Below, piece after piece: positions 1 to 32,954 of a stretch of DNA of 64,000 bases. The DNA is taken from assembly GCA_000002445.1 (NCBI GenBank), contig CP000071.1, positions 2,304,001-2,368,000 of the forward strand. The letters are read 5' to 3'. Under the pieces are notes generated by a model. The model made no database searches, was not told where the DNA came from, and saw nothing but the letters and a program-made list of their open reading frames with translations. The stretch's first letter is position 1; each line of letters starts with the position of its first letter. The stretch comes from Trypanosoma brucei (taxonomy: Eukaryota). Made by a program: the position numbers and the translations under genes.

Positions 1-3000
1 GACTGGGTTTTATGTACCTGAAGGGCGTTTCTTTCGGCGATAAGGAGTATAAGCTGACACTTAAGGTAATGTCGATTATGGGCCGTAAATTGTGCGGTGT
101 TTTCGAATTAGACAGCTCTACTGATGGAAGGGCTTCTGATGATGATTTTGAGGCTGCATGGAAAAGGTTTGCTCCCACGATGCCACAAGGTGTAATTGTG
201 TTTGGTTCGCCAATTGAGGATACGAAGAGGTTCCTGTTGAAGTTTTTGGGGAGCAATGAATTGAGAGGTGCTTATATATTAATTCCTTCTATGCTTCAAT
301 ATGTTATTATAAACAGTTGGATGAAGGAGTTGGCCGTAAAGAATTTTGTGCCTGAGAGAGTGATACTGACGGGTCCGAGTCCACTTGCAAATGATAATGA
401 ATACATAGCAGTACGGAAGTTTCAGACTGATATGGAGAAGTACCTGGAAACAAATGGGAAACTTAATGGTCACAATTATGAAAAGGGTCACTTTTATGAT
501 CACAGTACTGACGGAGAATTGATGGTGCACGGATGGATTGTGGGCGAGGTCTTGTGGCGTACACTGGGAAGTCGTGAATCGCTGAAAAACCGTACAACTT
601 ACATGAACTCTCTGTACAACCAGCGTCGGTATGTTATCGATGATCTTGTGATTGGTGATTTTGGTGGTGAATGTGAGGGGAAGGCTGGTCAGCGTGGAGC
701 TGCATGCAAATGTAATCAAGGTGGAAATGTTGTTTACATGAAGAGGATGGGAACTGATCGGAATCTACATCCTGTGAAGGAGGGTGTAGTGACTCTCGCT
801 TCATCACGCTGCTATACGAATCTCTTACAACTGTATGCCCCATTGAATGGTATAATGTTTCGACTAGAAGACAATCCATTGGCGCAGCGGATTACAGAGG
901 AATATCGCGATGGCGCCTCCCTCGTTGTTGGAAAGGGCCAATTGGGTCAAGGTGATCGCTTCTTTTTGCATGAACTGAATTCGACATCGAGTGCGACAAA
1001 GCACAACATGTTAGAGGAGGTTAAAGAGCGTGTTGTGACGGCTGTGTTCGGTGTTGTGGATGATGCGCTACTGTCGATGACAGATATGACATTTATTGAT
1101 CCCATTCCTCTCAGTCCCAGGTTGAAACACCCCGGAAGGAATGCGTTGCATTTGTCTCCAACAATTGAGCAGCAGATTTTTGTAATGGTGGAGCGTGTTG
1201 TGGTTCCGAATTCCTGGGGGAGTGTGCATGCCATTGTTCGCAGTAGTGATGCACGTGGAATAAAATCTGTTCTTCGAAAGACTTTTTGGGCACTTGGTGG
1301 GTCGCTGGGTGCTTTCGACGAAGTTACCGACGGTGAAAGTGTGAAGAGTTTGTTGCCGCATAGCGGCTTCGTTCTCGTTATTGGTCTGACTGAAGCTGAT
1401 ATTACTGCAATTGCTGAGCATCTTGACAATCACAGGGAAGTGCGTGTATTTGCGTTATTCTTCGATGTGGCACTGCTGTACAGTGAGTTTGTGAAGGTAT
1501 TCAAAAAGCATCCGCAAGCTGCCGAGCGGTTACTATTCGCAACAAGCCTACCACACTGGGCAGACAACAATACGACATCCGAGACGGTTCAGGAATTTCA
1601 CAGGGACGTGGGGAATGAGAGTAAATGGACTCCACTGGCGCTACTTGGGTATGCGACTGCACGTGCAATGGAAAGTGTTGTGTTGCAAACGGGGCGTGTG
1701 AACTCAGAAGAGCTTATCAACACTATATTCAGTCAGTCTGTAATTGTAGCGGATGACATGTGGTATGGACCCTTTGAGGACAGTTGTTCCAATAGCCGCT
1801 GGTCATCAGCGAAAGACTGCATTGTGAATTACGGTGCGACACATATTTCCGTGTGGTCCATGGCTCGTGTGTTGAATCCTTCCGTACCTCCTGTTAGTGG
1901 AGTAGCAACACCATCAATACGTTACTACAAAGATGGATTGAATATGACTGAGGAAGAATTTATTGGCACAATTGTGGGTACCATTTTGTGTTTGATAGCA
2001 CTTGTGCTGATAGTAATGCTTATGCGGAAATGTATGCGTGGGGATACTCGCGATAACGAGAACGCACCAAGAGAATTGACAGACCCCGTAACGCTAATAT
2101 TCACTGACATCGAGAGCAGCACTGCGCAGTGGGCAGCACACCCTGAGCTTATGCCTGATGCCGTTGCAACACATCACCGCCTAATTCGCTCATTGATTTC
2201 CAAGTATGGATGCTATGAAGTGAAGACTGTTGGAGATTCTTTTATGATTGCATGCAAGAGCCCTTTCGCTGCTACGCAATTAGCGTGTGACATGCAACGA
2301 TGCTTTTTAGAACATGATTGGAAGACTGATGTGTTTGATACGTCTTATCGTGAGTTTGAGCGGCAGCGTGCGGAAGATGATGGGGATTATGTTCCACCCA
2401 CTGGCCATCTTGACCCTGATGTTTACAGTCGGTTGTGGAATGGACTGCGAGTGCGTGTTGGAATTCACACCGGGTTGTGTGATATTCGGCATGATGAAGT
2501 GACGAAAGGATATGACTTTTACGGTCGTACATCGAATATGGCAGCACGGACTGAGAGCATTGCTAATGGGGGGCAGGTGCTGTTGACACGTCCGACATAC
2601 CTTTCATTGAGTACTTCGGAGCGTGAGCAATTAAATGTGACTGCATTGGGTGATGTGCCATTGCGTGGTGTACCCAAACCTGTGGAGATGTACCAATTGA
2701 ATGCGGTACCCGGAAGGACATTTACTACACTGCGACTTGACCATGAGGTTGCTGATGACGAAGATACGAGTGTTTCTTGCAGTGATGGGAGTTCCATTGG
2801 TGCAGTTCTCAGTGATGCCGCTCAACAGGTTGTTGCTTGCGTTGAAGCACTACTTGGTGCATTCCCTACTGCGCAGCATAAGAAATTACTTATGCCATTT
2901 TGTAACCGATGGGGAGTTTCGTTACCTTATAATGTTTCTGATACGTGGGATGCAACCACGTGCCGTAATGTTACTCGCCTGCTTGCCGCGAGGGTTGGTC

Positions 3001-3206
3001 GTGTTGTGGATTTTGGGACGAAGAATACTCATGACAGTGTACAATTCTCTGAAAGACGCTCGGGAACTTTTCCGTCCAGGTTAGCTGCCGCTGTTGATCT
3101 CGTAAGCATCCCTTCAACTTCTACCTGTATTCAATCCAGCTGCAGTATTATATATATGAATGTGCCAGATGATGATGATACCAGCAAATATTCCCCTAAG
3201 CATTGA
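1..3206 (+). CDS. GRESAG4: Receptor-type adenylate cyclase (ESAG4/GRESAG4 family), copy 1. The 5' end lies outside the window and the stop is at 3204-3206. It has the ectodomain, a TM helix (FIGTIVGTILCLIALVLIVMLM) and a class III cyclase domain (LIFTDIESST...YEVKTVGDSFMIACKS...RVGIHTGL...GRTSNMAARTES).
   Basis: The ORF 12..3206 aligns colinearly with aa ~235-1267 of the full copies downstream. The frame is open from position 1. The cyclase catalytic motifs are intact. The tail variant ...SGTFPSRLAAAVDLVSIPSTSTCIQSSCSIIYMNVPDDDDTSKYSPKH is specific to this copy. Confidence 0.9.
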   Translation, partial: LGFMYLKGVSFGDKEYKLTLKVMSIMGRKLCGVFELDSSTDGRASDDDFEAAWKRFAPTMPQGVIVFGSPIEDTKRFLLKFLGSNELRGAYILIPSMLQYVIINSWMKELAVKNFVPERVILTGPSPLANDNEYIAVRKFQTDMEKYLETNGKLNGHNYEKGHFYDHSTDGELMVHGWIVGEVLWRTLGSRESLKNRTTYMNSLYNQRRYVIDDLVIGDFGGECEGKAGQRGAACKCNQGGNVVYMKRMGTDRNLHPVKEGVVTLASSRCYTNLLQLYAPLNGIMFRLEDNPLAQRITEEYRDGASLVVGKGQLGQGDRFFLHELNSTSSATKHNMLEEVKERVVTAVFGVVDDALLSMTDMTFIDPIPLSPRLKHPGRNALHLSPTIEQQIFVMVERVVVPNSWGSVHAIVRSSDARGIKSVLRKTFWALGGSLGAFDEVTDGESVKSLLPHSGFVLVIGLTEADITAIAEHLDNHREVRVFALFFDVALLYSEFVKVFKKHPQAAERLLFATSLPHWADNNTTSETVQEFHRDVGNESKWTPLALLGYATARAMESVVLQTGRVNSEELINTIFSQSVIVADDMWYGPFEDSCSNSRWSSAKDCIVNYGATHISVWSMARVLNPSVPPVSGVATPSIRYYKDGLNMTEEEFIGTIVGTILCLIALVLIVMLMRKCMRGDTRDNENAPRELTDPVTLIFTDIESSTAQWAAHPELMPDAVATHHRLIRSLISKYGCYEVKTVGDSFMIACKSPFAATQLACDMQRCFLEHDWKTDVFDTSYREFERQRAEDDGDYVPPTGHLDPDVYSRLWNGLRVRVGIHTGLCDIRHDEVTKGYDFYGRTSNMAARTESIANGGQVLLTRPTYLSLSTSEREQLNVTALGDVPLRGVPKPVEMYQLNAVPGRTFTTLRLDHEVADDEDTSVSCSDGSSIGAVLSDAAQQVVACVEALLGAFPTAQHKKLLMPFCNRWGVSLPYNVSDTWDATTCRNVTRLLAARVGRVVDFGTKNTHDSVQFSERRSGTFPSRLAAAVDLVSIPSTSTCIQSSCSIIYMNVPDDDDTSKYSPKH

Positions 3207-3967
3207 AATATGTGTCCATTATTGCCAGAATAATTGGATAAGGTTCAATGAAAGATCTGTGCATGTTTCTTGTTCGATATTGGATGTTTTCGATAATATT
3301 CTTTTTAGGTTATATTTTCCACTTCTATGTATACACGGTATCCTCCTCACATGTTGGGTGCTTTCCATATTCGTGTGTTCCGCTTAGCTAGTGATTAAAG
3401 CACTTATTGAAGCAAACCCACTTTTCGTTTGTTGTTATAAAGTGGGGGATGTACTTATTTTCTCCATACTCTCACTGTGTGAAGCGTTATTTTTCTTGTT
3501 TCCCACTTCCGGTGAGCGGGTGTCAGGCAAAATGCACTGACCTCCTATATTAATGAAAATCGATGCATTCCCGTGCTGGACAGATAAGCCATCGTATTAT
3601 TAACTTCTAATGTTGCTGTTGGTACAACATATCAGTGTTGTTCACTTTGCTTTCCTTTACTATTATGTTGAAATGGTTTATTGTTTTTTTCTTTTTGTGT
3701 GCATATATCTGTATATGTGTTTCGATATACCGTCACCACTCTACCACGTTGATGGATTGGGGAATGGCTACTGATTGATTAATGCATGGTTTTTTGTCAC
3801 TTTAATAACAACATTGTATTCCATGATGGCTTTCAGCAACTGACCCTTGTGTACAATTTCCTGTTTATTTCCCTCTACTGACACAAATCTTTTTTACTAA
3901 TATCTTTTCCTTCTTTTATCACTTTCCAGGACTTGACAAGCCAAATATGTGAGGCTGGCTATTGCAT
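3207..3967. repeat. Intergenic 3'-flank element A, variant A1. It is repeated again at 4465..5225.
   Basis: It is near-identical to 4465..5225 (same strings, e.g. gtgggggatgtacttattttctccatactctcactgtgtgaagcg...ccggtgagcgggtgtcagg). Its 3' ~450 bp is shared with all other inter-cyclase spacers. It ends in a polypyrimidine tract followed by ...ctttccag. Confidence 0.75.
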
Positions 3968-4464
3968 TTGGAAGGACATTTGCTACACTGCGACTTAACC
4001 ATGAGGTTGCTGATGACGAAGATACGAGTGTTTCTTGCAGTGATGGGAGTTCCATTGGTGCAGTTCTCAGTGATGCCGCTCATCAGGCCGTTGCTTTTAT
4101 TGAAGCACTACTTGGTGCATTCCCTACTGCGCAGCATAAGAAATTACTTATGCCATTTTGTAACCGATGGGGAGTTTCGGCGCCTTATAATGTTTCTGAT
4201 ACGTGGGATGCAACCACGTGCCGTAATGTTACTCGCCTGCTTGCCGCGAGGGTTGGTCGTGTTGTGGATTTTGGGACGAAGAATACTCATGACAGTGTAC
4301 AATCCTTTGATAGACGCTCGGGAACTTTTCCGTCCAGGTTAGCTGCCGCTGTTGATCTCGTAAGCATCCCTTCAACTTCTACCTGTATTCAATCCAGCTG
4401 CAGTATTATATATATGAATGTGCCAGATGATGATGATACCAGCAAATATTCCCCTAAGCATTGA
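3968..4464 (+). pseudogene. Orphan cyclase 3'-tail remnant (F/T hybrid). The 5' part is F-type (LNHEVADDED...AAHQAVAFIEALL) and the 3' part is identical in type to the copy-1 tail, ending ...IIYMNVPDDDDTSKYSPKH*.
   Basis: ORF 3949..4464 (GTG-initiated in the track) encodes only the last ~170 aa of the cyclase. It is preceded by spacer rather than by the cyclase body. Its downstream flank duplicates the copy-1 flank. Confidence 0.75.
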
Positions 4465-5225
4465 AATATGTGTCCATTATTGCCAGAATAATTGGATAAG
4501 GTTCAATACATGATCTGTGCATGTTTCTTTTTCGATATTGGATGTTTTCGATAATATTCTTTTTAGGTTATATTTTTCACTTCTATGTATACACGGTATC
4601 CTCCTCACATGTTGGGTGCTTTCCATATTCGTGTGTTCCGCCTAGCTAGTGATTAAAGCACTTATTGAAGCAAACCCACTTTTCGTTTGTTGTTATAAAG
4701 TGGGGGATGTACTTATTTTCTCCATACTCTCACTGTGTGAAGCGTTATTTTTCTTGTTTCCCACTTCCGGTGAGCGGGTGTCAGGAAAAATGCACTGACC
4801 TCCTATATTAATGAAAATCGATGCATTCCCGTGCTGGACAGATAAGCCATCGTATTATTAACTTCTAATGTTGCTGTTGGTACAACATATCAGTGTTGTT
4901 CACTTTGCTTTCCTTTACTATTATGTTGAAATGGTTTATTGTTTTTTTCTTTTTGTGTGCATATATCTGTATATGTGTTTCGATATACCGTCACCACTCT
5001 ACCACGTTGATGGATTGGGGAATGGCTACTGATTGATTAATGCATGGTTTTTTGTCACTTTAATAACAACATTGTATTCCATGATGGCTTTCAGCAACTG
5101 ACCCTTGTGTACAATTTCCTGTTTATTTCCCTCTACTGACACAAATCTTTTTTACTAATATCTTTTCCTTCTTTTATCACTTTCCAGGACTTGACAAGCC
5201 AAATATGTGAGACTGGCTATTGCAT
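4465..5225. repeat. Second copy of the intergenic element A1.
   Basis: The sequence is colinear and near-identical with 3207..3967. Confidence 0.75.
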
Positions 5226-5491
5226 TTGGAAGGACATTTGCTACACTGCGACTTAACCATGAGGTTGCTGATGACGAAGATACGAGTGTTTCTTGCAGTG
5301 ATGGGAGTTCCATTGGTGCAGTTCTCAGTGATGCCGCTTATCAGGCCGTTGCTTTTATTGAAGCACTACTTGGTGCATTCCCTACTGCGCAGCGTAAGAA
5401 ATTACTTATGCCATTTTGTAACCGATGGGGAGTTTCGGCGCCTCGTAATGTTTCTGATACGTGGGATGCAACCACGTGCCGTAATGTTACA
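5226..5491 (+). pseudogene. F fragment. This is an orphan ~266-bp copy of the cyclase 3'-tail coding region (homologous to ~8922..9188 of the next gene). It diverges after ...TTCRNVT into VTCV* and abuts the trans-splice region of copy 2.
   Basis: ORF 5207..5506 translates to RTFATLRLNHEVADDEDTSVSCSDGSS...NVSDTWDATTCRNVTVTCV*. The same fragment recurs before every array copy. Confidence 0.75.
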
Positions 5492-5506
5492 GTCACTTGT
5501 GTGTAA

Positions 5507-5640
5507 TTGAATTTCAACTGCACTCTCTTCTGCTCCCTTTCGTGCCCTTACTTTATTGTTGTCTATTATCATTATTATTATTATTCTCTCATTTCTCTCC
5601 TTTAAGACTTACGAATTCCTCAAGTCAAGTCACCAGTGTT
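5507..5640 (+). promoter_or_regulatory. Polypyrimidine tract (ctctcttctgctccctttcgtgccc...tctctcatttctctcctttaag) with AG dinucleotides. This is a putative spliced-leader trans-splice acceptor region and 5' UTR of cyclase copy 2.
   Basis: A pyrimidine run is followed by AG ~35-40 nt upstream of the first in-frame ATG. This is the kinetoplastid trans-splicing architecture (established knowledge). The exact acceptor is not determinable from sequence. Confidence 0.5.
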
Positions 5641-8600
5641 ATGGCTTCCTTCATGCGTCTTGTTACTCCACTTGGCGCTGCAGTGGCTTGCAGTCATCTC
5701 CTCATGGTTGTGTTACCGCTGCTGTTACTTATTCCTGGTTTATGTGCTGATAAAGACTGTAACAGTAGCAGTGTAACGGTGAGGGTGTATAATTTGTTGT
5801 ACAGCTCTAAGATATCAAGTAAAATCTATGAACCCGTCATTGCTGGTTTCAATGCCTCGCTACATGCGCATAATGATGATTTGCCGGCAAATGTGTGCAT
5901 AGAGGTCGAACATGTTCATGCCAGAAGCGATGAGGATTACGTCTCATATTTAAAGGATAAAATTGATGGAGATGCTGCTGTACATAATAAGAGTGAACTG
6001 CCCATTGTGCTGGGACCTGTTGGTGATGTGACTACTCTCCATCTCACCAGGGAACTTGAGAAGTTTGAAATAGTGGCCTTTTCTCCCTTTACTGGATCTT
6101 CGGATGTGCGTGTGTGGAAAAAGAATCTGTACTTCCTTACGGCATCGCCTGTTGCAGAGGTGCTTGCACTAATTCGTTACGCTGTGAGTCAATTGAGGTT
6201 TCAGCGACTGGGTTTTATGTACCTGAAGGGTGTGTTTTATGGCGATAAGGAGTATAAGCTGACACTTAAGGTAATGTCGATTATGGGCCGTAAATTGTGC
6301 GGTGTTTTCGAATTAGACAGCTCTACTGATGGAAGGGCTTCTGATGATGATTTTGAGGCTGCATGGAAAAGGTTTGCTCCCACGATGCCACAAGGTGTAA
6401 TTGTGTTTGGTTCGCCAATTGAGGATACGAAGAGGTTCCTGATGAAGTTTTTAGGGAGCAATGAATTGAGAGGTGCTTATATATTAATTCCTTCCATGCT
6501 TCAATATGTTATCAAAAACAGTTGGGTGAAGGAGTTGGCCGTAAAGAATTTTGTGCCTGAGAGAGTGATACTGACGGGTCCGAGTCCACTTGCAAATGAT
6601 AATGAATACATAGCGGTACGGAAGTTTCAGCCTGTTATGGAGAAGTACCTGGAAAAAAATGGGAAACTTAATGGTCACAATTATGAAAAGGGTCACTTTT
6701 ACCAGCACAGTACTGACGGAGAATTGATGCTGCACGGATGGATCACAGGCGAGGTCTTGTGGCGTACACTGGGAAGTCGTGAATTACTGAAAAACCGTAC
6801 AACTTACATGAACTCTCTGTACAACCAGCGTCGGTATGTTATCGATGATCTTGTGATTGGTGATTTTGGTGGTGAATGTGAGGGGAAGGCTGGTCAGCGT
6901 GGAGCTGCATGCAAATGTAATCAAGGTGGAAATGTTGTTTACATGAAGAGGATGGGAACTGATCGGAATCTACATCCTGTGAAGGAGGGTGTAGTGACTC
7001 TCGCTTCATCACGCTGCTATACGAATCTCTTACAACTGTATGCCCCATTGAATGGTATAATGTTTCGACTAGAAGACAATCCATTGGCGCAGCGGATTAC
7101 AGAGGAATATCGCGATGGCGCCTCCCCCGTTGTTGGAAAGGGCCAATTGGGTCAAGGTGATCGCTTATTTTTGCATGAACTGAATTCGACATCGAGTGCG
7201 ACAAAGCACAACATGTTAGAGGAGGTTAAAGAGCGTGTTGTGACGGCCGTGTTCGGTGTTGTGGATGACGCGCTACTGTCGATGACAGATATGACATTTA
7301 TTGATCCCATTCCTCTCAGTCCCAGGTTGAAACACCCCGGAAGGAATGTGTTGCATTTGTCTCCAACAATTGAACAGCAGATTTTTGTAATGGTGGAGCG
7401 TGTTGTGGTTCCGAATTCCTGGGGGAGTGTGCATGCCATTGTTCGCAGTAGTGATGCACGTGGAATAAAATCTGTTCTTCGAAAGACTTTTTGGGCACTT
7501 GGTGGGTCGCTGGGTGCTTTCGACGAAGTTACCGACAGTGAAAGTGTGAAGAGTTTGTTACCGAATAGCGGCTTCGTTCTCGTTATTGGTCTAACTGAAG
7601 CTGATATTACTGCAATTGCTGAGCATCTTGACAATCACAGGGAAGTGCGTGTATTTGTGTTATTCTTCGATGTGGCACTGCTGTACAGTGAGTTTGTGAA
7701 GGTATTCAAAAAGCATCCGCAAGCTGCCGAGCGGTTACTATTCGCAACAAGCCTACCACACTGGGCAGACAACAATACGACATCCGAGACGGTTCAGGAG
7801 TTTCACAGGGACGTGGGGAATGAGAGTAAATGGACTCCACTGGCGCTGCTTGGGTATGCGACTGCACGTGCAATGGAAAGTGTTGTGTTGCAAATGGGGC
7901 GTGTGAACTCAGAAGAGCTTATCAACACTATATTCAGTCAGTCTGTAATTGTAGCGGATGACATGTGGTATGGACCCTTTGAGGACAGTTGTTCCAATAG
8001 CCGCTGGTCATCAGCGAAAGACTGCATTGTGAATTACGGTGCGACACATATTTCCGTGTGGTCCATGGCTCGTGTGTTGAATCCTTCCGTACCTCCTGTT
8101 AGTGGAGTAGCAGCACCATCAATACGTTACTACAAAGATGGATTGAATATGACTGAGGAAGAATTTATTGGCACAATTGTGGGTACCATTTTGTGTTTGA
8201 TAGCACTTGTGCTGATAGTAATGCTTATGCGGAAATGTATGCGTGGGGATACTCGCGATAACGAGAACGCACCAAAAGAATTGACAGACCCCGTAACGCT
8301 AATATTCACTGACATCGAGAGCAGCACTGCGCAGTGGGCAGCACACCCTGAGCTTATGCCTGATGCCGTTGCAACACATCACCGCCTAATTCGCACATTG
8401 ATTTCCAAGTATGGATGCTATGAAGTGAAGACTGTTGGAGATTCTTTTATGATTGCATGCAAGAGCCCTTTCGCTGCTACGCAATTAGCGTGTGACCTGC
8501 AGCGGTGCTTTTTAGAACATGATTGGAAGACTGATGTGTTTGATACGTCTTATCGTGAGTTTGAGCGGCAGCGTGCGGAAGATGATGGGGATTATGTTCC

Positions 8601-9444
8601 ACCCACTGGCCATCTTGACCCTGATGTTTACAGTCGGTTGTGGAATGGACTGCGAGTGCGTGTTGGAATTCACACCGGGTTGTGTGATATTCGGCATGAT
8701 GAAGTGACGAAAGGATATGACTTTTACGGTCGTACATCGAATATGGCAGCACGGACTGAGAGCATTGCTAATGGCGGGCAGGTGCTGTTGACACGTTCGA
8801 CATACCTTTCATTGAGTACTTCGGAGCGTGAGCAATTAAATGTGACTGCATTGGGTGATGTGCCATTGCGTGGTGTACCCAAACCTGTGGAGATGTACCA
8901 ATTGAATGCGGTACCCGGAAGGACATTTACTACACTGCGACTTGACCATGAGGTTGCTGATGACGAAGATACGAGTGTTTCTTGCAGTGATGGGAGTTCC
9001 ATTGGTGCAGTTCTCAGTGATGCCGCTCATCAGGCCGTTGCTTTTATTGAAGCACTACTTGGTGCATTCCCTACTGCGCAGCATAAGAAATTACTTATGC
9101 CATTTTGTAACCGATGGGGAGTTTCGTTACCTTATAATGTTTCTGATACGTGGGATGCAACCACGTGCCGTAATGTTACTCGCCTGCTTGCCGCGAGGGT
9201 TGGTCGTGTTGTGGATTTTGGGACGAAGAATACTCATGACAGTGTACAATCCTTTGATAGACGCTCGGGAACTTTCCCACCTGGATTGGTTGCCTCTGTT
9301 CCTGAGGAGGGTAGTTTAGCTTCAACTTCTACCTGTATTCAATCCAGCTGCAGTGTTGTGTACATGATGAATGGGCCAGATGATGATGATACCAGCAAAT
9401 GTTCCCCTAAGCATTGCAATATGCGTCCGTTATTGCCAGAATAA
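5641..9444 (+). CDS. GRESAG4: Receptor-type adenylate cyclase, copy 2 (1267 aa). It has a signal peptide (MASFMRLVTPLGAAVACSHLLMVVLPLLLLIPGLCA), an ectodomain, a TM helix and a class III cyclase domain.
   Basis: The long ORF 5497..9444 (track start is TTG). The first in-frame ATG is at 5641, directly followed by a hydrophobic signal sequence. The catalytic motifs are complete. Confidence 0.9.
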   Translation: MASFMRLVTPLGAAVACSHLLMVVLPLLLLIPGLCADKDCNSSSVTVRVYNLLYSSKISSKIYEPVIAGFNASLHAHNDDLPANVCIEVEHVHARSDEDYVSYLKDKIDGDAAVHNKSELPIVLGPVGDVTTLHLTRELEKFEIVAFSPFTGSSDVRVWKKNLYFLTASPVAEVLALIRYAVSQLRFQRLGFMYLKGVFYGDKEYKLTLKVMSIMGRKLCGVFELDSSTDGRASDDDFEAAWKRFAPTMPQGVIVFGSPIEDTKRFLMKFLGSNELRGAYILIPSMLQYVIKNSWVKELAVKNFVPERVILTGPSPLANDNEYIAVRKFQPVMEKYLEKNGKLNGHNYEKGHFYQHSTDGELMLHGWITGEVLWRTLGSRELLKNRTTYMNSLYNQRRYVIDDLVIGDFGGECEGKAGQRGAACKCNQGGNVVYMKRMGTDRNLHPVKEGVVTLASSRCYTNLLQLYAPLNGIMFRLEDNPLAQRITEEYRDGASPVVGKGQLGQGDRLFLHELNSTSSATKHNMLEEVKERVVTAVFGVVDDALLSMTDMTFIDPIPLSPRLKHPGRNVLHLSPTIEQQIFVMVERVVVPNSWGSVHAIVRSSDARGIKSVLRKTFWALGGSLGAFDEVTDSESVKSLLPNSGFVLVIGLTEADITAIAEHLDNHREVRVFVLFFDVALLYSEFVKVFKKHPQAAERLLFATSLPHWADNNTTSETVQEFHRDVGNESKWTPLALLGYATARAMESVVLQMGRVNSEELINTIFSQSVIVADDMWYGPFEDSCSNSRWSSAKDCIVNYGATHISVWSMARVLNPSVPPVSGVAAPSIRYYKDGLNMTEEEFIGTIVGTILCLIALVLIVMLMRKCMRGDTRDNENAPKELTDPVTLIFTDIESSTAQWAAHPELMPDAVATHHRLIRTLISKYGCYEVKTVGDSFMIACKSPFAATQLACDLQRCFLEHDWKTDVFDTSYREFERQRAEDDGDYVPPTGHLDPDVYSRLWNGLRVRVGIHTGLCDIRHDEVTKGYDFYGRTSNMAARTESIANGGQVLLTRSTYLSLSTSEREQLNVTALGDVPLRGVPKPVEMYQLNAVPGRTFTTLRLDHEVADDEDTSVSCSDGSSIGAVLSDAAHQAVAFIEALLGAFPTAQHKKLLMPFCNRWGVSLPYNVSDTWDATTCRNVTRLLAARVGRVVDFGTKNTHDSVQSFDRRSGTFPPGLVASVPEEGSLASTSTCIQSSCSVVYMMNGPDDDDTSKCSPKHCNMRPLLPE

Positions 9445-10200
9445 TTGGATAAGGTTCAATACATGATCTGTGCATGTTTCTTTTTCGATATTAGATTTTT
9501 TCGATAATATTCTTTTTAGGTTGTCTCTATTACTATGTGTGCTCAGCATCCTCCTCACATGTTGGGTGGTTTTATTATCCCTCTGATGAAAGAAATTTCT
9601 TGAAATGCTGTTGGCAATCTTTTATTTTAATACGTTTAGCGGTAAGCGCTTTTCGTTTTTCCTTTATTATGCGATACCGGAGCATGCATATCACTGCTGA
9701 TGCTCCGGCCCATAGTTTATGATATGTGTTCTTTTCCACCCCCGGTGAGTGGGTGTCAGGCAAAATGCACTGATATCCTCTTTTGGTGGGAATTTATAAG
9801 TTACCATGCTGGACAGTTGAGCCACCGTATTATTAACTTCTAATGTTGCTGTTGGTACAACATATCAGTGTCGTTCACTTTGATTTCCTTTACTATTATG
9901 TTGAAATGGTTTATTGTTTTTTTCTTTTTGTGTGCATATATCTGTATATGTGTTTCGATATACCGTCACCACTCTACCACGTTGATGGATTGGGGAATGG
10001 CTACTGATTGATTAATGCATGGTTTTTTGTCACTTTAATAACAACATTGTATTCCATGATGGCTTTCAGCAACTGACCCTTGTGTACAATTTCCTGTTTA
10101 TTTCCCTCTACTGACACAAATCTTTTTTACTAATATCTTTTCCTTCTTTTATCACTTTCCAGGACTTGACAAGCCAAATATGTGAGACTGGCTATTGCAT
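9445..10200. repeat. Intergenic 3'-flank element A, variant A2.
   Basis: It shares the conserved 3' ~450 bp (ccggtgagtgggtgtcaggcaaaatgcactgatatcc...gttgctgttggtacaacatatcag...ctttccaggacttgacaagccaaatatgtgag) with the other spacers. Its 5' ~300 bp differs from A1 and from the 14414 spacer. Confidence 0.7.
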
Positions 10201-10466
10201 TCGGAAGGACATTTACTACACTGCGACTTAACCATGAGGTTGCTGATGACGAAGATACGAGTGTTTCTTGCAGTGATGGGAGTTCCATTGGTGCAGTTCT
10301 CAGTGATGCCGCTTATCAGGCCGTTGCTTTTATTGAAGCACTACTTGGTGCATTCCCTACTGCGCAGCGTAAGAAATTACTTATGCCATTTTGTAACCGA
10401 TGGGGAGTTTCGGCGCCTCGTAATGTTTCTGATACGTGGGATGCAACCACGTGCCGTAATGTTACA
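10201..10466 (+). pseudogene. F fragment (orphan cyclase-tail remnant) upstream of copy 3.
   Basis: ORF 10182..10481 has the same translation as 5207..5506 with 2 substitutions. Confidence 0.75.
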
Positions 10467-10481
10467 GTCACTTGTGTGTAA

Positions 10482-10615
10482 TTGAATTTCAACTGCACTC
10501 TCTTCTGCTCCCTTTCGTGCCCTTACTTTATTGTTGTCTATTATCATTATTATTATTATTCTCTCATTTCTCTCCTTTAAGACTTACGAATTCCTCAAGT
10601 CAAGTCACCAGTGTT
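10482..10615 (+). promoter_or_regulatory. Polypyrimidine/AG putative trans-splice acceptor region and 5' UTR of copy 3.
   Basis: It is homologous to 5507..5640. Confidence 0.5.
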
Positions 10616-13600
10616 ATGGCTTCCTTCATGCGTCTTGTTACTCCACTTGGCGCTGCAGTGGCTTGCAGTCATCTCCTCATGGTTGTGTTACCGCTGCTGT
10701 TACTTATTCCTGGTTTATGTGCTGATAAAGACTGTAACAGTAGCAGTGTAACGGTGAGGGTGTATAATTTGTTGTACGGTTCCGACGTATCAAAAGCAAT
10801 CTATGAACCCGTCATTGCTGGTTTCAATGCCTCTATCGAAGCGCACAAAGGGGATTTACCGGCAAATGTGTGCATAGAGGTGAAATATGTGCATCACGAT
10901 GGCAATGTTATTGAGGTTGGGAATATAAATAGGATTGTTGAAGAAGACAAAGGAAATATGAATGAACTGCCCATTGTGCTGGGACCTTTTGGTGATTGGG
11001 AAACTCGTAATATTTCCTCGGAACTTGAAGAGTTGAAGGTAGTTGCCTTTTCTCCCTTTACTGGATCTTCGGATGTGCGTGTGTGGAAAAAGAATCTGTA
11101 CTTCCTTACGGCATCGCCTGTTGCACAGGTGCTTGCACTAATTCGTTATGCAGTGAGTCAATTGAGGCTTCAGCGACTGGGTTTTATGTACCTGAAGGGT
11201 GTGTTTTATGGCGATAAGGAGTATAAGCTGACACTTAAGGTAATGTCGATTATGGGCCGTAAATTGTGCGGTGTTTTCGAATTAGACAGCTCTACTGATG
11301 GAAGGGCTTCTGATGATGATTTTGAGGCTGCATGGAAAAGGTTTGCTCCCACGATGCCACAAGGTGTAATTGTGTTTGGTTCGCCAATTGAGGATACGAA
11401 GAGGTTCCTGTTGAAGTTTTTAGGGAGCAATGAATTGAGAGGTGCTTATATATTAATTCCTTCTATGCTTCAATATGTTATCAAAAACAGTTGGATGAAG
11501 AAGTTGGCCGTAAAGAATTTTGTGCCTGAGAGAGTGATACTGACGGGTCTGACTCCACTTGCAAATGATAATGAATACATAGCAGTACGGAAGTTTCAGA
11601 CTGATATGGAGAAGTACCTGGAAAAAAATGGGAAACTTAATGGTCACAATTATGAAAAGGGTCACTTTTATGATCACAGTACTGACGGAGAATTGATGGT
11701 GCACGGATGGATCACAGGCGAGGTCTTGTGGCGTACACTGGGAAGTCGTGAATTACTGTGCAACCGTACAGCTTACATGAACTCTCTGTACAACCAGCGT
11801 CGGTATGTTATCGATGATCTTGTGATTGGTGATTTTGGTGGTGAATGTGAGGGGAAGGCTGGTCAGCGTGGAGCTGCATGCAAATGTAATCAAGGTGGAA
11901 ATGTTGTTTACATGAAGAGGATGGGAACTGATCGGAATCTACATCCTGTGAAGGAGGGTGTAGTGACTCTCGCTTCATCACGCTGCTATACGAATCTCTT
12001 ACAACTGTATGCCCCATTGAATGGTATAATGTTTCGACTGGAAGACAATCCATTGGCGCAGCGGATTACAGAGGAATATCGCGATGGCGCCTCCCCCGTT
12101 GTTGGAAAGGGCCAATTGGGTCAAGGTGATCGCTTCTTTTTGCATGAACTGAATTCGACATCGAGTGCGACAAAGCACAACATGTTAGAGGAGGTTAAAG
12201 AGCGTGTTGTGACGGCCGTGTTCGGTGTTGTGGATGACGCGCTACTGTCGATGACAGATATGACATTTATTGATCCCATTCCTCTCAGTCCCAGGTTGAA
12301 ACACCCCGGAAGGAATGTGTTGCATTTGTCTCCAACAATTGAGCAGCAGATTTTTGTAATGGTGGAGCGTGTTGTGGTTCCGAATTCCTGGGGGAGTGTG
12401 CATGCCATTGTTCGCAGTAGTGATGCACGTGGAATAAAATCTGTTCTTCGAAAGACTTTTTGGGCACTTGGTGGGTCGCTGGGTGCTTTCGACGAAGTTA
12501 CCGACGGTGAAAGTGTGAAGAGTTTGTTACCGCATAGCGGTTTCGTTCTCGTTATTGGTCTAACTGAAGCTTATATTACTGCAATTGCTGAGCATCTTGA
12601 CAATCACAGGGAAGTGCGTGTATTTGTGTTATTCTTCGATGTGGCACTGCTGTACAGTGAGTTTGTGAAGGTATTCAAAAAGCATCCGCAAGCTGCCGAG
12701 CGGTTACTATTCGCAACAAGCCTACCACACTGGGCAGACAACAATACGACATCCGAGACGGTTCAGGAATTTCACAGGGACGTGGGGAATGAGAGTAAAT
12801 GGACTCCACTGGCGCTGCTTGGGTATGCGACTGCACGTGCAATGGAAAGTGTTGTGTTGCAAATGGGGCGTGTGAACTCAGAAGAGCTTATCAACACTAT
12901 ATTCAGTCAGTCTGTAATTGTAGCGGATGACATGTGGTATGGACCTTTTGAGGACAGTTGTTCCAATAGCCGCTGGTCATCAGCGAAAGACTGCATTGTG
13001 AATTACGGTGCGACACATATTTCCGTGTGGTCCATGGCTCGTGTGTTGAATCCTTCCGTACCTCCTGTTAGTGGAGTAGCAACACCATCAATACGTTACT
13101 ACAAAGATGGATTGAATATGACTGAGGAAGAATTTATTGGCACAATTGTGGGTACCATTTTGTGTTTGATAGCACTTGTGCTGATAGTAATGCTTATGCG
13201 GAAATGTATGCGTGGGGATACTCGCGATAACGAGAACGCACCAAGAGAATTGACAGACCCCGTAACGCTAATATTCACTGACATCGAGAGCAGCACTGCG
13301 CAGTGGGCAGCACACCCTGAGATTATGCCTGATGCCGTTGCAACACATCACCGCCTAATTCGCACATTGATTTCCAAGTATGGATGCTATGAAGTGAAGA
13401 CTGTTGGAGATTCTTTTATGATTGCATGCAAGAGCCCTTTCGCTGCTACGCAATTAGCGTGTGACCTGCAACGATGCTTTTTAGAACATGATTGGAAGAC
13501 TGATGTGTTTGATACGTCTTATCGTGAGTTTGAGCGGCAGCGTGCGGAAGATGATGGGGATTATGTTCCACCCACTGGCCATCTTGACCCTGATGTTTAC

Positions 13601-18500: not shown

Positions 18501-19139
18501 GAGTTTGAGCGGCAGCGTGCGGAAGATGATGGGGATTATGTTCCACCCACTGGCCATCTTGACCCTGATGTTTACAGTCGGTTGTGGAATGGACTGCGAG
18601 TGCGTGTTGGAATCCACGCCGGGTTGTGTGATATTCGGCATGATGAAGTGACGAAAGGATATGACTTTTACGGTCGTACATCGAATATGGCAGCACGGAC
18701 TGAGAGCATTGCTAATGGCGGGCAGGTGCTGTTGACACGTTCGACATACCTTTCATTGAGTACTTCGGAGCGTGAGCAATTAAATGTGACTGCATTGGGT
18801 GATGTGCCATTGCGTGGTGTACCCAAACCTGTGGAGATGTACCAATTGAATGCGGTACCCGGAAGGACATTTACTACACTGCGACTTGACCATGAGGTTG
18901 CTGATGACGAAGATACGAGTGTTTCTTGCAGTGATGGGAGTTCCATTGGTGCAGTTCTCAGTGATGCCGCTCATCAGGTTGTTGCTTTTATTGAAGCACT
19001 ACTTGGTGCATTCCCCACTGCGCAGCGTAAGAAATTACTTATGCCATTTTGTAACCGATGGGGAGTTTCGGCACCTTATAATGTTTCTGATACGTGGGAT
19101 GCAACCACGTGCCATAATGTTACAGTCACTTGTGTGTAA
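15586..19139 (+). pseudogene. GRESAG4: Receptor-type adenylate cyclase copy 4, disrupted. A -1 frameshift lies in a homopolymer at ~16610-16616 (ggaaaaaagtggaaac, where the other copies read ggaaaaaaatgggaaac). The C-terminus is replaced by the F-type ending ...TTCHNVTVTCV*. The gene then runs directly into the next copy's splice region with no 3' flank.
   Basis: The ORF track splits the copy into 15442..16671 and 16668..19139 in different frames. The unit length here is 3688 bp, against ~4970 elsewhere. Confidence 0.8.
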
Positions 19140-29201: not shown

Positions 29202-32200
29202 ATGGCTTCCTTCATGCGTCTTGTTACTCCACTTGGCGCTGCAGTGGCTTGCAGTCATCTCCTCATGGTTGTGTTACCGCTGCTGTTACTTATTCCTGGT
29301 TTATGTGCTGATAAAGACTGTAACAGCAGTGGTAAAGTGTCAGTGAAAGTGCACAGTTTGTTGTACAGCTCTAAGATATCAAGTAAAATCTATGAACCCG
29401 TCATTGCTGGTTTCAATGCCTCGCTACATGCGCATAATGATGATTTACCGGCAAATGTGTGCACAAAGGTTGAGCTCGTGCACGTTGTGAGTGGTGGGAA
29501 TCATATGAATACTATTGAGACGATGATTGGGGAGGGTGAAGAAAATAGTAATGAACTGCCCATTGTGCTGGGACCTTTTGGTGATGAGACTACTCTCCAT
29601 CTCACCTCGAAACTTGAGAAGTTAAAGGTAGTGGCCTTTTCTCCCTTTACTGGATCTTCGGATGTGCGTGTGTGGAAAAAGAATCTGTACTTCCTTACGG
29701 CATCGCCTGTTGCAGAGGTGCTTGCACTAATTCGTTATGCTGTGAGTCAATTGAGGCTTCAGCGACTGGGTTTTATGTACCTGAAGGGTGTGTTTTATGG
29801 CGATAAGGAGTACGAGCTGACACTTAAGGTAATGTCGATTATGGGCCGTAAATTGTGCGGTGTTTTCGAATTAGACAGCTCTACTGATAGAAGGGCTTCT
29901 GATGATGATTTTGAGGCTGCATGGAAAAGGTTTGCTCCCACGATGCCACAAGGTGTAATTGTGTTTGGTTCGCCAATTGAGGATACGAAGAGGTTCCTGA
30001 ATAGGTTATTGGGGAGCAATGAATTGAGAGGTGCTTATATATTAATTCCTTCCATGCTTCAATATGTTATCAAAAACAGTTGGCTGGATGATCTGCAATT
30101 ATTTAATTTGAATTTCTCGAAAGTGATAGTTGCGGGTCTGACTCCACTTGCAAATGATAATGAATACATAGCGGTACAGAAGTTTCAGACTGATATGGGG
30201 AAGTACCTGGGAAATAATGGAAAACTTAATGGTCACAATTATGAAAAGGGTCACTTCTACCAGCACAGTACTGACGGAGAATTGATGCTGCACGGATGGA
30301 TTGTGGGCGAGGTCTTGTGGCGTACACTGGGAAGTCGTGAATTACTGTGCAACCGTACAACTTACATGAACTCTCTGTACAACCAGCGTCGGTATGTTAT
30401 CGATGATCTTGTGATTGGTGATTTTGGTGGTGAATGTGAGGGGAAGGCTGGTCAGCGTGGAGCTGCATGCAAATGTAATCAAGGTGGAAATGTTGTTTAC
30501 ATGAAGAGGATGGGAACTGATCGGAATCTACATCCTGTGAAGGAGGGTGTAGTGACTCTCGCTTCATCACGCTGCTATACGAATCTCTTACAACTGTATG
30601 CCCCATTGAATGGTATAATGTTTCGACTAGAAGACAATCCATTGGCGCAGCGGATTACAGAGGAATATCGCGATGGCGCCTCCCTCGTTGTTGGAAAGGG
30701 CCAATTGGGTCAAGGTGATCGCTTCTTTTTGCATGAACTGAATTCGACATCGAGTGCGACAAAGCACAACATGTTAGAGGAGGTTAAAGAGCGTGTTGTG
30801 ACGGCTGTGTTCGGTGTTGTGGATGATGCGCTACTGTCGATGACAGATATGACATTTATTGATCCCATTCCTCTCAGTCCCAGGTTGAAACACCCCGGAA
30901 GGAATGCGTTGCATTTGTCTCCAACAATTGAGCAGCAGATTTTTGTTATAGTTAAAAACTTTGTTGTTAAAAATTCTTCAAGAAGAGTGCGTGCCATTGT
31001 TCGCGGTGGTGATGCACGTGGAATAAAATCTGTGCTACGAAGGACACTTTGGGTTTTTGGAAAGTTTTTGAGGGCAGTTGACACTATTAATGATGGTGAA
31101 AGTGTGAGGGGGATGTTGCATCGCAGTCGTGATTGTTTCGTTTTCGGTCTAACTGAAGCTGATATTACTGCAATTGCTGAGCATCTTGACAATCACAGGA
31201 AAGTGCGTGTATTTGTGTCGTTCTTCGATGTGGCACTGCTGTACAGTGAGTTTGTGAAGGTATTCAAAAAGCATCCGCAAGCTGCCGAGCGGTTACTATT
31301 CGCAACAAGCCTACCACACTGGGCAGACAACAATACGACATCCGAGACGGTTCAGGAATTTCACAGGGACGTGGGGATTCAGAGTAAATGGACTCCACTG
31401 GCGCTGCTTGGGTATGCGACTGCACGTGCAATGGAAAGTGTTGTGTCGCGAATGGGGCGTGTGAACTCAGAAGAGCTTATCAACGCCATATTCAGTCAGT
31501 CTGTAATTGTAGCGGATGACATGTGGTATGGACCCTTTGAGGACAGTTGCGCTAGCGGGTCCTCAGTGAAGGATTGCGCTGTGAATTACGGTGCGACACA
31601 TATTTCCGTGTGGTCCATGGCTCGTGTGTTGAATCCTTCCGTACCTCCTGTTAGCCAACCCGAAAGTCCATCGATACATTATTATAGTAATGGATTGAAT
31701 ATGACTGAGGAAGAATTTATTGGCACAATTGTGGGTACCATTTTGTGTTTGATAGCACTTGTGCTGATAGTAACAGTTATACGGAGGTTAATGCGTCTTA
31801 ACGCGCGGGATAACGAGAACGCACCAAAAGAATTGACAGACCCCGTAACGCTAATATTCACTGACATCGAGAGCAGCACTGCGCAGTGGGCAGCACACCC
31901 TGAGCTTATGCCTGATGCCGTTGCAACACATCACCGCCTAATTCGCACATTGATTTCCAAGTATGGATGCTATGAAGTGAAGACTGTTGGAGATTCTTTT
32001 ATGATTGCATGCAAGAGCCCTTTCGCTGCTACGCAATTAGCATGTGACCTGCAACGATGCTTTTTAGAACATGATTGGAAGACTGATGTGTTTGATACGT
32101 CTTATCGTGAGTTTGAGCGGCAGCGTGCGGAAGATGATGGGGATTATGTTCCACCCACTGGCCATCTTGACCCTGATGTTTACAGTCGGTTGTGGAATGG

Positions 32201-32954
32201 ACTGCGAGTGCGTGTTGGAATCCACACCGGGTTGTGTGATATTCGGCATGATGAAGTGACGAAAGGATATGACTACTACGGTCGTACATCGAATATGGCA
32301 GCACGGACTGAGAGCATTGCTAATGGGGGGCAGGTGCTGTTCACACGTTCGACATACCTTTCATTGAGTACTTCGGAGCGTGAGCAATTAAATGTGACTG
32401 CATTGGGTGATGTGCCACTGCGTGGTGTGCCGGAACCTGTGGAGATGTACCAATTGAATGCGGTACCCGGAAGGACATTCGCGGCACTGCGACTTGACTG
32501 TCAAATTATTGATGAAGATGATACGAGTGGTGCTTGCAGTGAAGCAAGTTCTGTTGGGATTGGTCTTGGTGATGCCGCTCAACAGGTTGCTGCTTGCATT
32601 GAAGCACTACTTGGTGCATTCCCCACTGCGCAGCGTAAGAAATTACTTATGCCATTTTGTAACCGATGGGGAGTTTCGGCGCCTCGCAATGTTTCTGATA
32701 CGTGGGATGATACCACGTGCCATGCTGTTACTCGCCTGCTTGCCGCGAAGGTTGGTCGTGTTGTGGATTTTGGGACGCGGACTGGTATTGGTAGTTTAGG
32801 CGCTAGCATAAGACGTGGTTCCTTTATATCACCAATGGCGTCTCGTATTGATATTCGTGGTAGTTCTTTTGCTCCTAGTGATATTGATGTTGGTGTGAGA
32901 ACGGTTCATTTTATTGGTCTACCAGATGATGATGCTGGAAGGTGTTCTCATTAG
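29202..32954 (+). CDS. GRESAG4: Receptor-type adenylate cyclase, copy 7 (1250 aa). This is a divergent edge paralog with a distinct N-terminal patch, a replaced ectodomain segment, a replaced juxtamembrane segment and a unique C-terminal tail (...GTRTGIGSLGASIRRGSFISPMASRIDIRGSSFAPSDIDVGVRTVHFIGLPDDDAGRCSH*).
   Basis: ORF 29058..32954, with the first ATG at 29202. The cyclase catalytic core is conserved. The flank after 32954 starts like an A element for ~170 bp and then becomes unique sequence. Confidence 0.88.
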   Translation: MASFMRLVTPLGAAVACSHLLMVVLPLLLLIPGLCADKDCNSSGKVSVKVHSLLYSSKISSKIYEPVIAGFNASLHAHNDDLPANVCTKVELVHVVSGGNHMNTIETMIGEGEENSNELPIVLGPFGDETTLHLTSKLEKLKVVAFSPFTGSSDVRVWKKNLYFLTASPVAEVLALIRYAVSQLRLQRLGFMYLKGVFYGDKEYELTLKVMSIMGRKLCGVFELDSSTDRRASDDDFEAAWKRFAPTMPQGVIVFGSPIEDTKRFLNRLLGSNELRGAYILIPSMLQYVIKNSWLDDLQLFNLNFSKVIVAGLTPLANDNEYIAVQKFQTDMGKYLGNNGKLNGHNYEKGHFYQHSTDGELMLHGWIVGEVLWRTLGSRELLCNRTTYMNSLYNQRRYVIDDLVIGDFGGECEGKAGQRGAACKCNQGGNVVYMKRMGTDRNLHPVKEGVVTLASSRCYTNLLQLYAPLNGIMFRLEDNPLAQRITEEYRDGASLVVGKGQLGQGDRFFLHELNSTSSATKHNMLEEVKERVVTAVFGVVDDALLSMTDMTFIDPIPLSPRLKHPGRNALHLSPTIEQQIFVIVKNFVVKNSSRRVRAIVRGGDARGIKSVLRRTLWVFGKFLRAVDTINDGESVRGMLHRSRDCFVFGLTEADITAIAEHLDNHRKVRVFVSFFDVALLYSEFVKVFKKHPQAAERLLFATSLPHWADNNTTSETVQEFHRDVGIQSKWTPLALLGYATARAMESVVSRMGRVNSEELINAIFSQSVIVADDMWYGPFEDSCASGSSVKDCAVNYGATHISVWSMARVLNPSVPPVSQPESPSIHYYSNGLNMTEEEFIGTIVGTILCLIALVLIVTVIRRLMRLNARDNENAPKELTDPVTLIFTDIESSTAQWAAHPELMPDAVATHHRLIRTLISKYGCYEVKTVGDSFMIACKSPFAATQLACDLQRCFLEHDWKTDVFDTSYREFERQRAEDDGDYVPPTGHLDPDVYSRLWNGLRVRVGIHTGLCDIRHDEVTKGYDYYGRTSNMAARTESIANGGQVLFTRSTYLSLSTSEREQLNVTALGDVPLRGVPEPVEMYQLNAVPGRTFAALRLDCQIIDEDDTSGACSEASSVGIGLGDAAQQVAACIEALLGAFPTAQRKKLLMPFCNRWGVSAPRNVSDTWDDTTCHAVTRLLAAKVGRVVDFGTRTGIGSLGASIRRGSFISPMASRIDIRGSSFAPSDIDVGVRTVHFIGLPDDDAGRCSH

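Follow-up and report, generated by a model that had tools for sequence, protein, structure and literature searches.

A GRESAG4 receptor adenylate cyclase array on chromosome 8 of Trypanosoma brucei brucei TREU927 contains an extra 1258-bp unit, without a gene, in the spacer between its copies 1 and 2. We propose that this unit is a scar of non-allelic homologous recombination within the array. We are very confident that there was an exchange between a segment of the cyclase coding region (T) and the copy of that segment that lies in the spacer (F). It is probable, though less secure, that the exchange took the form of a gain of 1258 bp. The sequences themselves show the anatomy of the region, the hybrid nature of a cyclase-tail remnant in it, the interval where that remnant switches from F to T, a joint of the reciprocal type, and whether the unit is present in other assemblies. 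We infer that 1258 bp were gained and not 3717 bp lost, as well as the timing of the event and its neutrality.

Organization of the array

We analyzed 64,000 nucleotides of the forward strand of contig CP000071.1 (assembly GCA_000002445.1, positions 2,304,001 to 2,368,000). We will call this stretch the window, and unless stated otherwise, coordinates are positions within it. Copies 1 to 7 of the array lie inside the window. According to the literature, the array starts at Tb927.8.7860 and is followed by Tb927.8.7950 and by the pyrophosphatase gene Tb927.8.7980. The genes downstream of the array are syntenic with chromosome 8 of T. b. gambiense DAL972 (98.4% identity).

When the elements of the copy-2 unit are mapped back onto the window, the regular unit is 4975 bp long and its elements are in the order G-T-Trest-A-F-B:

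G: the gene body of the regular unit
T: a stretch of 265 bp in the part of the gene that encodes the C-terminal region (263-265 bp across units)
Trest: about 237 bp, from T to the stop codon, in the regular unit
A: about 783 bp of spacer in the regular unit
F: a 265-bp copy of T in the spacer, followed by 16 bp that end in TAA
B: the 150 bp directly before the next ATG

T and F are direct repeats, and every regular unit has both of them (94-98% identical to each other within units, over 263-265 bp). F is in the spacer, 1258 bp downstream of T; the spacing the other way is 3717 bp. Tandem Repeats Finder gave no output (its limit is 500 bp, and the periods here are 1258 and 4975 bp). A scan of positions 2600-10700 against Rfam, at E ≤ 0.1, matched no RNA family.

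From copy 1 to copy 2, the window contains these features:

1..3206, + strand: copy 1, a receptor-type adenylate cyclase (GRESAG4) that is 5'-truncated at the window edge
2712..2974, + strand: T1, the segment within copy 1 that has homology to F, from the element map and alignment; one of the proposed recombination partners
2975..3206, + strand: Trest of copy 1, the variant that ends in FPSRLAAAVDLVSIPSTSTCIQSSCSIIYMNVPDDDDTSKYSPKH before the stop codon; it opens the first 1258-bp unit
3207..3967, + strand: A1a, the stretch of spacer that follows copy 1; near its end, at about 3860-3928, is a polypyrimidine tract and then AG
3968..4464, + strand: R, a cyclase-tail remnant of 497 bp, with homology to F and T at 3968-4232 and gene-only tail at 4233-4464
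4465..5225, + strand: A1b, the second copy of the spacer segment; its patch at 4508-4530 (the counterpart of 3250-3272) matches other array spacers
5226..5506, + strand: F2, the tail segment's regular copy in the spacer (5226-5490), with 16 more bp that end in TAA
5491..5640, + strand: B of copy 2, with a polypyrimidine tract and AG before the copy-2 ATG; presumably a trans-splice acceptor region
5641..9444, + strand: copy 2, a full-length cyclase of 1267 amino acids

The open reading frame of copy 1 (12-3206) comprises the last 1064 codons of the gene, and its translation matches the C-terminal part of AAZ13548 (P0132 in our set; 1256 amino acids, TREU927). Copy 2 is 100% identical to XP_847615 (P0045) of T. 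b. brucei TREU927. It has matches to the Pfam families PF25495, PF25493, and PF00211, and its product has two adenylate-cyclase periplasmic-binding-protein-like domains and a class III cyclase catalytic domain.

Directly upstream of the window is another copy, which we call copy 0 (AAZ13547, or P0125; 1298 amino acids). In our reading, P0125 is Tb927.8.7860. If the annotated N-terminal extension of copy 0 is left aside, copies 0 and 1 differ at about 13 residues, and their last 70 residues are identical. An earlier note on this sequence had described copy 1 as the only copy with its type of tail. This is correct inside the window, but the gene just upstream shares that tail.

An extra unit between copies 1 and 2

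The stop codon of copy 1 is at 3206 and the ATG of copy 2 is at 5641, so this spacer is 2434 bp long, as compared to 1171 bp for the spacer between copies 2 and 3 (9445-10615). All the coordinates in the earlier note are accurate, including those on which it had based its contrast of 2434 bp with about 1170 bp. The elements of the longer spacer are in the order A1a, R, A1b, F2. The flanking segment A1 does occur twice, as the note had also reported: A1a and A1b are 761 bp each and align without gaps, with just 8 mismatches (98.9% identity). When we aligned them to every other spacer in the window, we found at least 113 differing sites, so the two are each other's closest relatives among these spacers.

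The period of the repeat is 1258 bp. The two units (2975-4232 and 4233-5490) differ at 15 positions and have no indels relative to each other, which agrees with the note's estimate of a duplicated segment of about 1258 bp. The size of the extra unit is the same as the offset from T to F (1258 bp in both cases).

R combines an F-type start with a gene-type end

To judge from the alignments, R is a hybrid whose 5' part comes from F and whose 3' part comes from T and the tail that follows it (F5'/T3'). At the left end of R, the junction is of the A/F type (TTGGAAGG after the end of A), and not of the type that is found inside genes (CCGGAAGG). The first 265 bp of R are 98.5% identical to F2. Also, there are two bases, at 3969 and 3982, that only R and F2 have in common among the thirteen T and F segments of the window. 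The junction and these two bases uphold the claim that the 5' end of R is colinear with F. The motif AHQAVAFIEALL, which the earlier note had taken as the mark of an F-type start, turned out to be uninformative on its own: copy 2's own T is identical to R there.

R then passes column 265 of the alignment, where every F ends, and goes on into tail sequence. From 4329 to the stop codon, it is identical to copy 1, and this is a region where copies 2-7 are strongly divergent. The 3' end of R is thus colinear with a tail of the copy-1 type, as had been claimed. Across its full length, R is 97.2% identical to positions 2712-3206 of copy 1, and 87-93% identical to the tail regions of copies 2, 3, 5, and 6.

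Both ends of R are of junction types that already existed in the array (A/F on the left and the junction of tail and A on the right), and R contains neither indels nor foreign bases. R has no poly(A) and no target-site duplication, and there is no novel sequence at 3967/3968 or 4464/4465. These observations bear on whether R was inserted by a non-homologous process, such as the retroposition of a piece from the 3' part of an mRNA or a templated insertion when a break was repaired, with the duplication of A1 as a separate event. In favor of such a process, F itself must once have had a non-homologous origin. But R and A1b are in exact 1258-bp register with Trest, A1a, and F, with 0 indels. The exact register and the pre-existing junction types led us to reject retroposition or templated insertion as the source of R, and we consider this explanation as a whole to be extremely improbable. 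We also rejected an exchange between the A segments of two spacers, which is unable to make an F/T hybrid between two copies of A.

An open frame of 171 codons (3949-4464) runs over R. This frame has no match in Pfam and no cyclase domain. R has no ATG at the place that corresponds to the cyclase start, and the sole ATG in frame leads to a tail peptide of 104 residues. Because R lacks a start codon, a ligand-binding domain, and a catalytic domain, we classify it as a pseudogene fragment with no expected protein function, and it is presumably neutral. The pyrimidine tract and AG at the end of A1a are a candidate splice acceptor.

R is probably annotated already, as Tb927.8.7880, "GRESAG 4 (pseudogene)"; this assignment comes from counting identifiers and protein accessions. 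There are eight identifiers (7870 to 7940) between Tb927.8.7860, the first gene of the array, and Tb927.8.7950, the next gene that is not a cyclase. These would be allotted to copy 1, R, and copies 2-7. The protein accessions of copy 1 (AAZ13548) and copy 2 (AAZ13549) are consecutive, with none between them. The annotation of Tb927.8.7880 is silent about how the fragment originated.

The switch from F to T, and probable later gene conversion

The change from F-type to T-type sequence can be placed near the end of the homology:

4183..4232, + strand: F-to-T switch interval; 4182 is the last site where R differs from the T of copy 1 and agrees with F2, and 4232 is the end of the F/T homology

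Four sites (4081, 4136, 4186, and 4187) distinguish R from F2, and sixteen distinguish it from the T and tail of copy 1. The last of these sixteen within the F/T homology is 4182, and there are differences beyond the homology at 4304, 4307, and 4311. In a scan for a single breakpoint in R, the best switch was after 4182-4185, with 5 residual mismatches. A switch at the end of the F homology leaves 7 mismatches, and deriving all of R from copy 1 leaves 16.

At all four sites where R and F2 differ, F2 carries the bases of F3, and F2 is identical to F3 from column 16 on. One conversion of F2 by F3, after the event, would explain all four differences. If this conversion occurred, then the crossover could lie anywhere in 4183-4232.

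The earlier note had described R as having an F-type start and a copy-1-type end. Both parts hold up, but R is no clean two-part chimera: it is a mosaic with patches that suggest gene conversion. F-like and T-like bases alternate in R at columns 114, 116-132, 169, 213-215, and 219-220; at columns 114 and 169, R agrees with the T of copy 1. Furthermore, at 4304-4311, R has the QSFDRR variant that is found in copies 2, 5, and 6, where copy 1 has QFSERR (3046, 3049, and 3053). Given the alternating pattern and the patch of the copy-2/5/6 type, a single clean crossover would not be sufficient without later conversions.

The 15 differences between the two units are clustered. One cluster is made up of the three sites 3046, 3049, and 3053. 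In another, at 3250-3272, A1a is like the A1 of other strains, and the corresponding part of A1b is like spacers A2 and A3, so the patch at 4508-4530 looks like a conversion tract. Another two of the differences are the adjacent pair 4186-4187, and six further sites are isolated. These clusters look like short gene-conversion tracts from other members of the array, and the switch point itself seems to have been blurred by later conversion. Such tracts fit with the mosaics and breakpoints that have been published for this array (PMC2854126) and for T. brucei arrays in general (PMC1855330). Elsewhere in the window, the T of copy 2 has F-type bases at 9035-9036, and F6 has T-type bases.

Comparison to other genomes

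We compared the region to an independent long-read assembly of T. b. equiperdum (GCA_003543875.1, sequence CM010679.1). There, the first gene of the array has the copy-1 type of tail, and A1, R, A1, F, and B lie, in this order, between it and the next gene. A single 1-bp indel is the only difference between the two units in T. b. equiperdum. Across the 265 columns, its R is identical to its F2, and three columns (1, 114, and 238) distinguish it from its T1. The T. b. equiperdum switch falls between columns 238 and 265, within the interval that we found for TREU927.

This assembly also bears on whether the extra unit is an artefact, that is, whether a 1258-bp segment was laid down twice in the reference. 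The copy number of tandem arrays is the least reliable part of trypanosome assemblies. Nevertheless, the two units in TREU927 differ at 15 positions, including patches that match other members of the array; the sequence of the hybrid joint is unique; and the A1-R-A1-F structure recurs in the independent assembly of another subspecies. An artefact is very unlikely.

The array of T. b. gambiense DAL972 has just one A1-F-B after its first gene, in a contiguous spacer of 1170 bp; there are N gaps elsewhere in that array, and the authors of the T. b. gambiense genome stated that the assembled number of repeat units can be arbitrary (PMC2854126). The comparison of strains that the earlier note had suggested thus yields a presence/absence polymorphism: TREU927 and T. 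b. equiperdum have the extra unit, and the DAL972 assembly is without it. A direct repeat of 1258 bp is unstable, which fits with its variable presence among strains. We also searched for homologues with a query of 300 residues from the tail; the search returned short proteins only, and no further T. brucei strains.

Both A1 copies in TREU927 share about 13 sites that differ from both of the T. b. equiperdum copies and from DAL972. Either there was an independent event in TREU927 and in T. b. equiperdum, or the units were homogenized within each lineage.

These genomes also give some indication of where F came from. There is no F upstream of the first array gene in T. b. equiperdum or in DAL972, where about 95 bp before the ATG are the sole shared part. 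Similarly, in DAL972, the spacers of the paralogous array on chromosome 4 contain no tail fragment. The latter result led us to reject an older origin of F, before the chromosome 4/8 duplication. The lack of F in both places indicates that F arose in the chromosome 8 array. It may have arisen at or near the joint of the first tandem duplication and then spread with the unit.

Gain of 1258 bp or loss of 3717 bp

We favor a gain of 1258 bp, which would have occurred as follows. The F of the spacer between copies 1 and 2 would pair, at an offset of +1258 bp, with the T of an a-type gene that lies on a sister chromatid or homologue out of alignment. The parent of the T part would be copy 1 or its near-twin, copy 0, and F2 is proposed as the other partner, or as that partner's sister. 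An exchange within the last ~50 bp of homology (4183-4232) would add one 1258-bp unit, made up of the remainder of the tail, A, and the 5' part of F. The product would be in the order T1, A1a, R (F5'/T3'), A1b, F2. Later on, short gene-conversion tracts from other members of the array would have changed both units. A gain would explain why two bases are shared by R and F2 only.

The earlier note had identified R as the duplication-side product of an exchange between F and T. The hybrid joint supports the exchange, but it does not establish the side, as a deletion of 3717 bp would leave the same joint. In this alternative, F and T recombined with an offset of -3717 bp, and R is the tail of a third a-type copy that has been lost. 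The F upstream of the lost gene would have recombined with the T inside it, which would remove everything from the 3' part of F, through B and the gene body, to the 5' part of T. The spacer that follows copy 1 would then be A1a, and the one that followed the lost copy would be A1b.

A loss would yield exactly the order that we observed (A, F5'/T3', tail, A, F). Copies 0 and 1 are near-identical a-type genes with identical tails, so runs of a-type units do exist, and a third such unit could once have been present. In T. b. equiperdum, a single a-type gene is followed by R, which is what would result if the body of a second a-type gene had been deleted in one step. The divergence of the two units (1.2%) is about the same as that of copies 0 and 1, which is compatible with a loss. 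On the other hand, in TREU927, a loss would require one more event than the 1258-bp gain does, namely an additional unit that was later gutted. Also, the 5' part of R and F2 are alone in the window in sharing the bases at 3969 and 3982. This is expected if they are sisters, although adjacent recent duplicates could share these bases too. Overall, the loss is possible but rather doubtful. The gain is more parsimonious, as it requires just one event starting from a normal array.

A reciprocal type of joint between copies 4 and 5

Another hybrid joint, with the halves exchanged, is present elsewhere in the array:

18861..19139, + strand: reciprocal-type T5'/F3' joint, where copy 4 is fused directly to B of copy 5

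The 5' end of this segment resembles T (columns 1-2, 30, and 121-122), its other end resembles F, and it is without Trest and without A. (The reading frame of copy 4 is also broken, by a 1-bp deletion near 16605.) This joint indicates that F and T have recombined with each other repeatedly in the array. R and the joint between copies 4 and 5 need not have come from one event.

Relation to known systems

Recombination between misaligned direct repeats gives two reciprocal products: a duplication-side hybrid joint with an extra segment, and a deletion-side hybrid joint. The Lepore and anti-Lepore haemoglobin genes and the red/green opsin arrays are textbook products of non-allelic homologous recombination. 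As with Lepore and anti-Lepore, our window has both types of joint: R, at 3968-4464, is one, and the joint between copies 4 and 5, at 18861-19139, is the other. Unlike in the haemoglobin and opsin genes, one of the two repeats here is coding, and the other is a non-coding relic of it. R is thus a fragment without a promoter or a start, and the other hybrid shortens a gene at its C-terminal tail and gives no full chimeric protein.

Recombination in this array has already been published, and the event that we describe is an ordinary outcome in an array that was already known to be recombinogenic. Published tests detected recombination breakpoints in array 80a, which is the Tb927.8.7860 GRESAG4 array (Jackson et al. 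2010, PMC2854126). The annotation of array 80a lists 8 copies for T. b. brucei and 4 for T. b. gambiense (PMC2854126). More broadly, it is accepted that tandem arrays in T. brucei change by unequal crossing-over and gene conversion (Jackson 2007, PMC1855330). These papers concern the same organism and array, and they describe mosaics and breakpoints in coding and 3' UTR sequence, with misalignment of repeats followed by exchange or conversion. The two papers appear to deal with whole gene units. In our case, both partners belong to a single unit: a segment inside the gene and the copy of it in the spacer. The proposed result is a gene-less gain of 1258 bp, smaller than a unit, together with a hybrid pseudogene fragment, and the number of genes is unchanged.

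Implications

F might be more than a relic: it might be a built-in, non-coding donor and acceptor for the C-terminal tails of these surface cyclases. We think that this is unlikely. On that reading, F and T would trade short tracts both ways, as in the T of copy 2 and in F6, and full crossovers between them would make tail-less genes (of the copy 4 type) and free-standing tail units (such as R). R might then also be expressed, from the splice-acceptor-like signal at the end of A1a. If it were true, the array would diversify or switch the tails of its cyclases, loosely like the formation of VSG mosaics from pseudogene templates.

The finding has some practical consequences. The 1258-bp unit and the copy 4/5 joint could be simple markers, distinguished by the size of a PCR product, for typing strains. 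Caution is also needed at Tb927.8.7860-7940 when reads are mapped, when copy numbers are called, and when probes for RNAi or microarrays are used.

What is known about the function of these cyclases and about the mechanisms of recombination is unaltered. Rather, this is a base-level example of how a trypanosome array changes, in which recombination between a coding segment and the array's own spacer copy of that segment would give rise to gene-less units and tail-less genes. The gain and loss of whole genes is a further mode of change, beside this one.

Genes in and beside the array

We found an additional cyclase gene just beyond window position 1 (copy 0; protein P0125, AAZ13547). Copies 0 and 1 share ~99% identity as well as their tail type. 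The annotation of copy 0 includes a 42-residue N-terminal extension, which reads through upstream sequence that resembles B, the 150 bp before the start codon in the regular 4975-bp unit. The final gene of the array, copy 7 (window 29202-32954), has a different tail, and its identity is 89-94% in the gene body and 82% in T, the 265-bp coding segment that also has a copy (F) in the spacers. Copy 7 is clearly more divergent, and it appears to lie outside the homogenisation that affects copies 1-6.

Copy 4 is disrupted. Its 3' end is a hybrid (5' part from T, 3' part from F; window 18861-19139) that runs straight into the sequence upstream of copy 5, with no A spacer in between and with ~78 codons missing from the end of the gene. 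In addition, a 1-bp deletion near window 16605 shifts the frame, so copy 4 is a pseudogene. It is probably Tb927.8.7910.

To the right of the array, an open reading frame exceeding 4060 codons begins near window 51821 and continues past the window end (51821-64000). Across this frame, G+C climbs from ~44% to ~52-54%.

Spacer content

We also examined how much of the spacer is present at the two ends of the array. For the array's first gene in T. b. equiperdum (L006 9330-9426) and in T. b. gambiense DAL972 (L004, the chromosome 8 array, 10030-10127), the similarity to internal units is limited to the ~95 bp immediately upstream of the ATG (compared with window 5545-5640). On the 3' side of copy 7, only the first ~150-165 bp past the tail region match spacer A (window 32961-33120). 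Overall, ~960 bp of every internal spacer, including F, is absent from both array ends.

The two gaps of 100 Ns in the DAL972 array both lie within cyclase genes (L004 12472-12571 and 23629-23728), and one of them falls inside the annotated first gene of 1358 residues. The gene models and the copy number of this array should not be trusted.

In the A1-type spacers, the central ~131 bp (window 3365-3495 and 4623-4753) has no match in the ~157-bp centre of the other spacers (in A2, 9573-9728), while the flanks on both sides align to other spacers at 86-95%. The spacer core of the a-type units (those of the copy 0/1 type) is therefore distinct. The GRESAG4 array of DAL972 chromosome 4 (FN554967.1 1138608-1162291), a paralogue of the chromosome 8 array, has short spacers that contain no copy of the tail-coding segment, so the F fragment is specific to the chromosome 8 array.

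Apparent exchange of short tracts between T and F

In copy 2, the coding segment T contains a "CC" (window 9035-9036) that is otherwise confined to the F fragments and to R, the hybrid tail remnant at 3968-4464. Conversely, F6 has bases of the T type at two columns of the T/F alignment, 30 and 114 (window 23855 and 23939). Short tracts seem to have been transferred in both directions, from T to F and from F to T.
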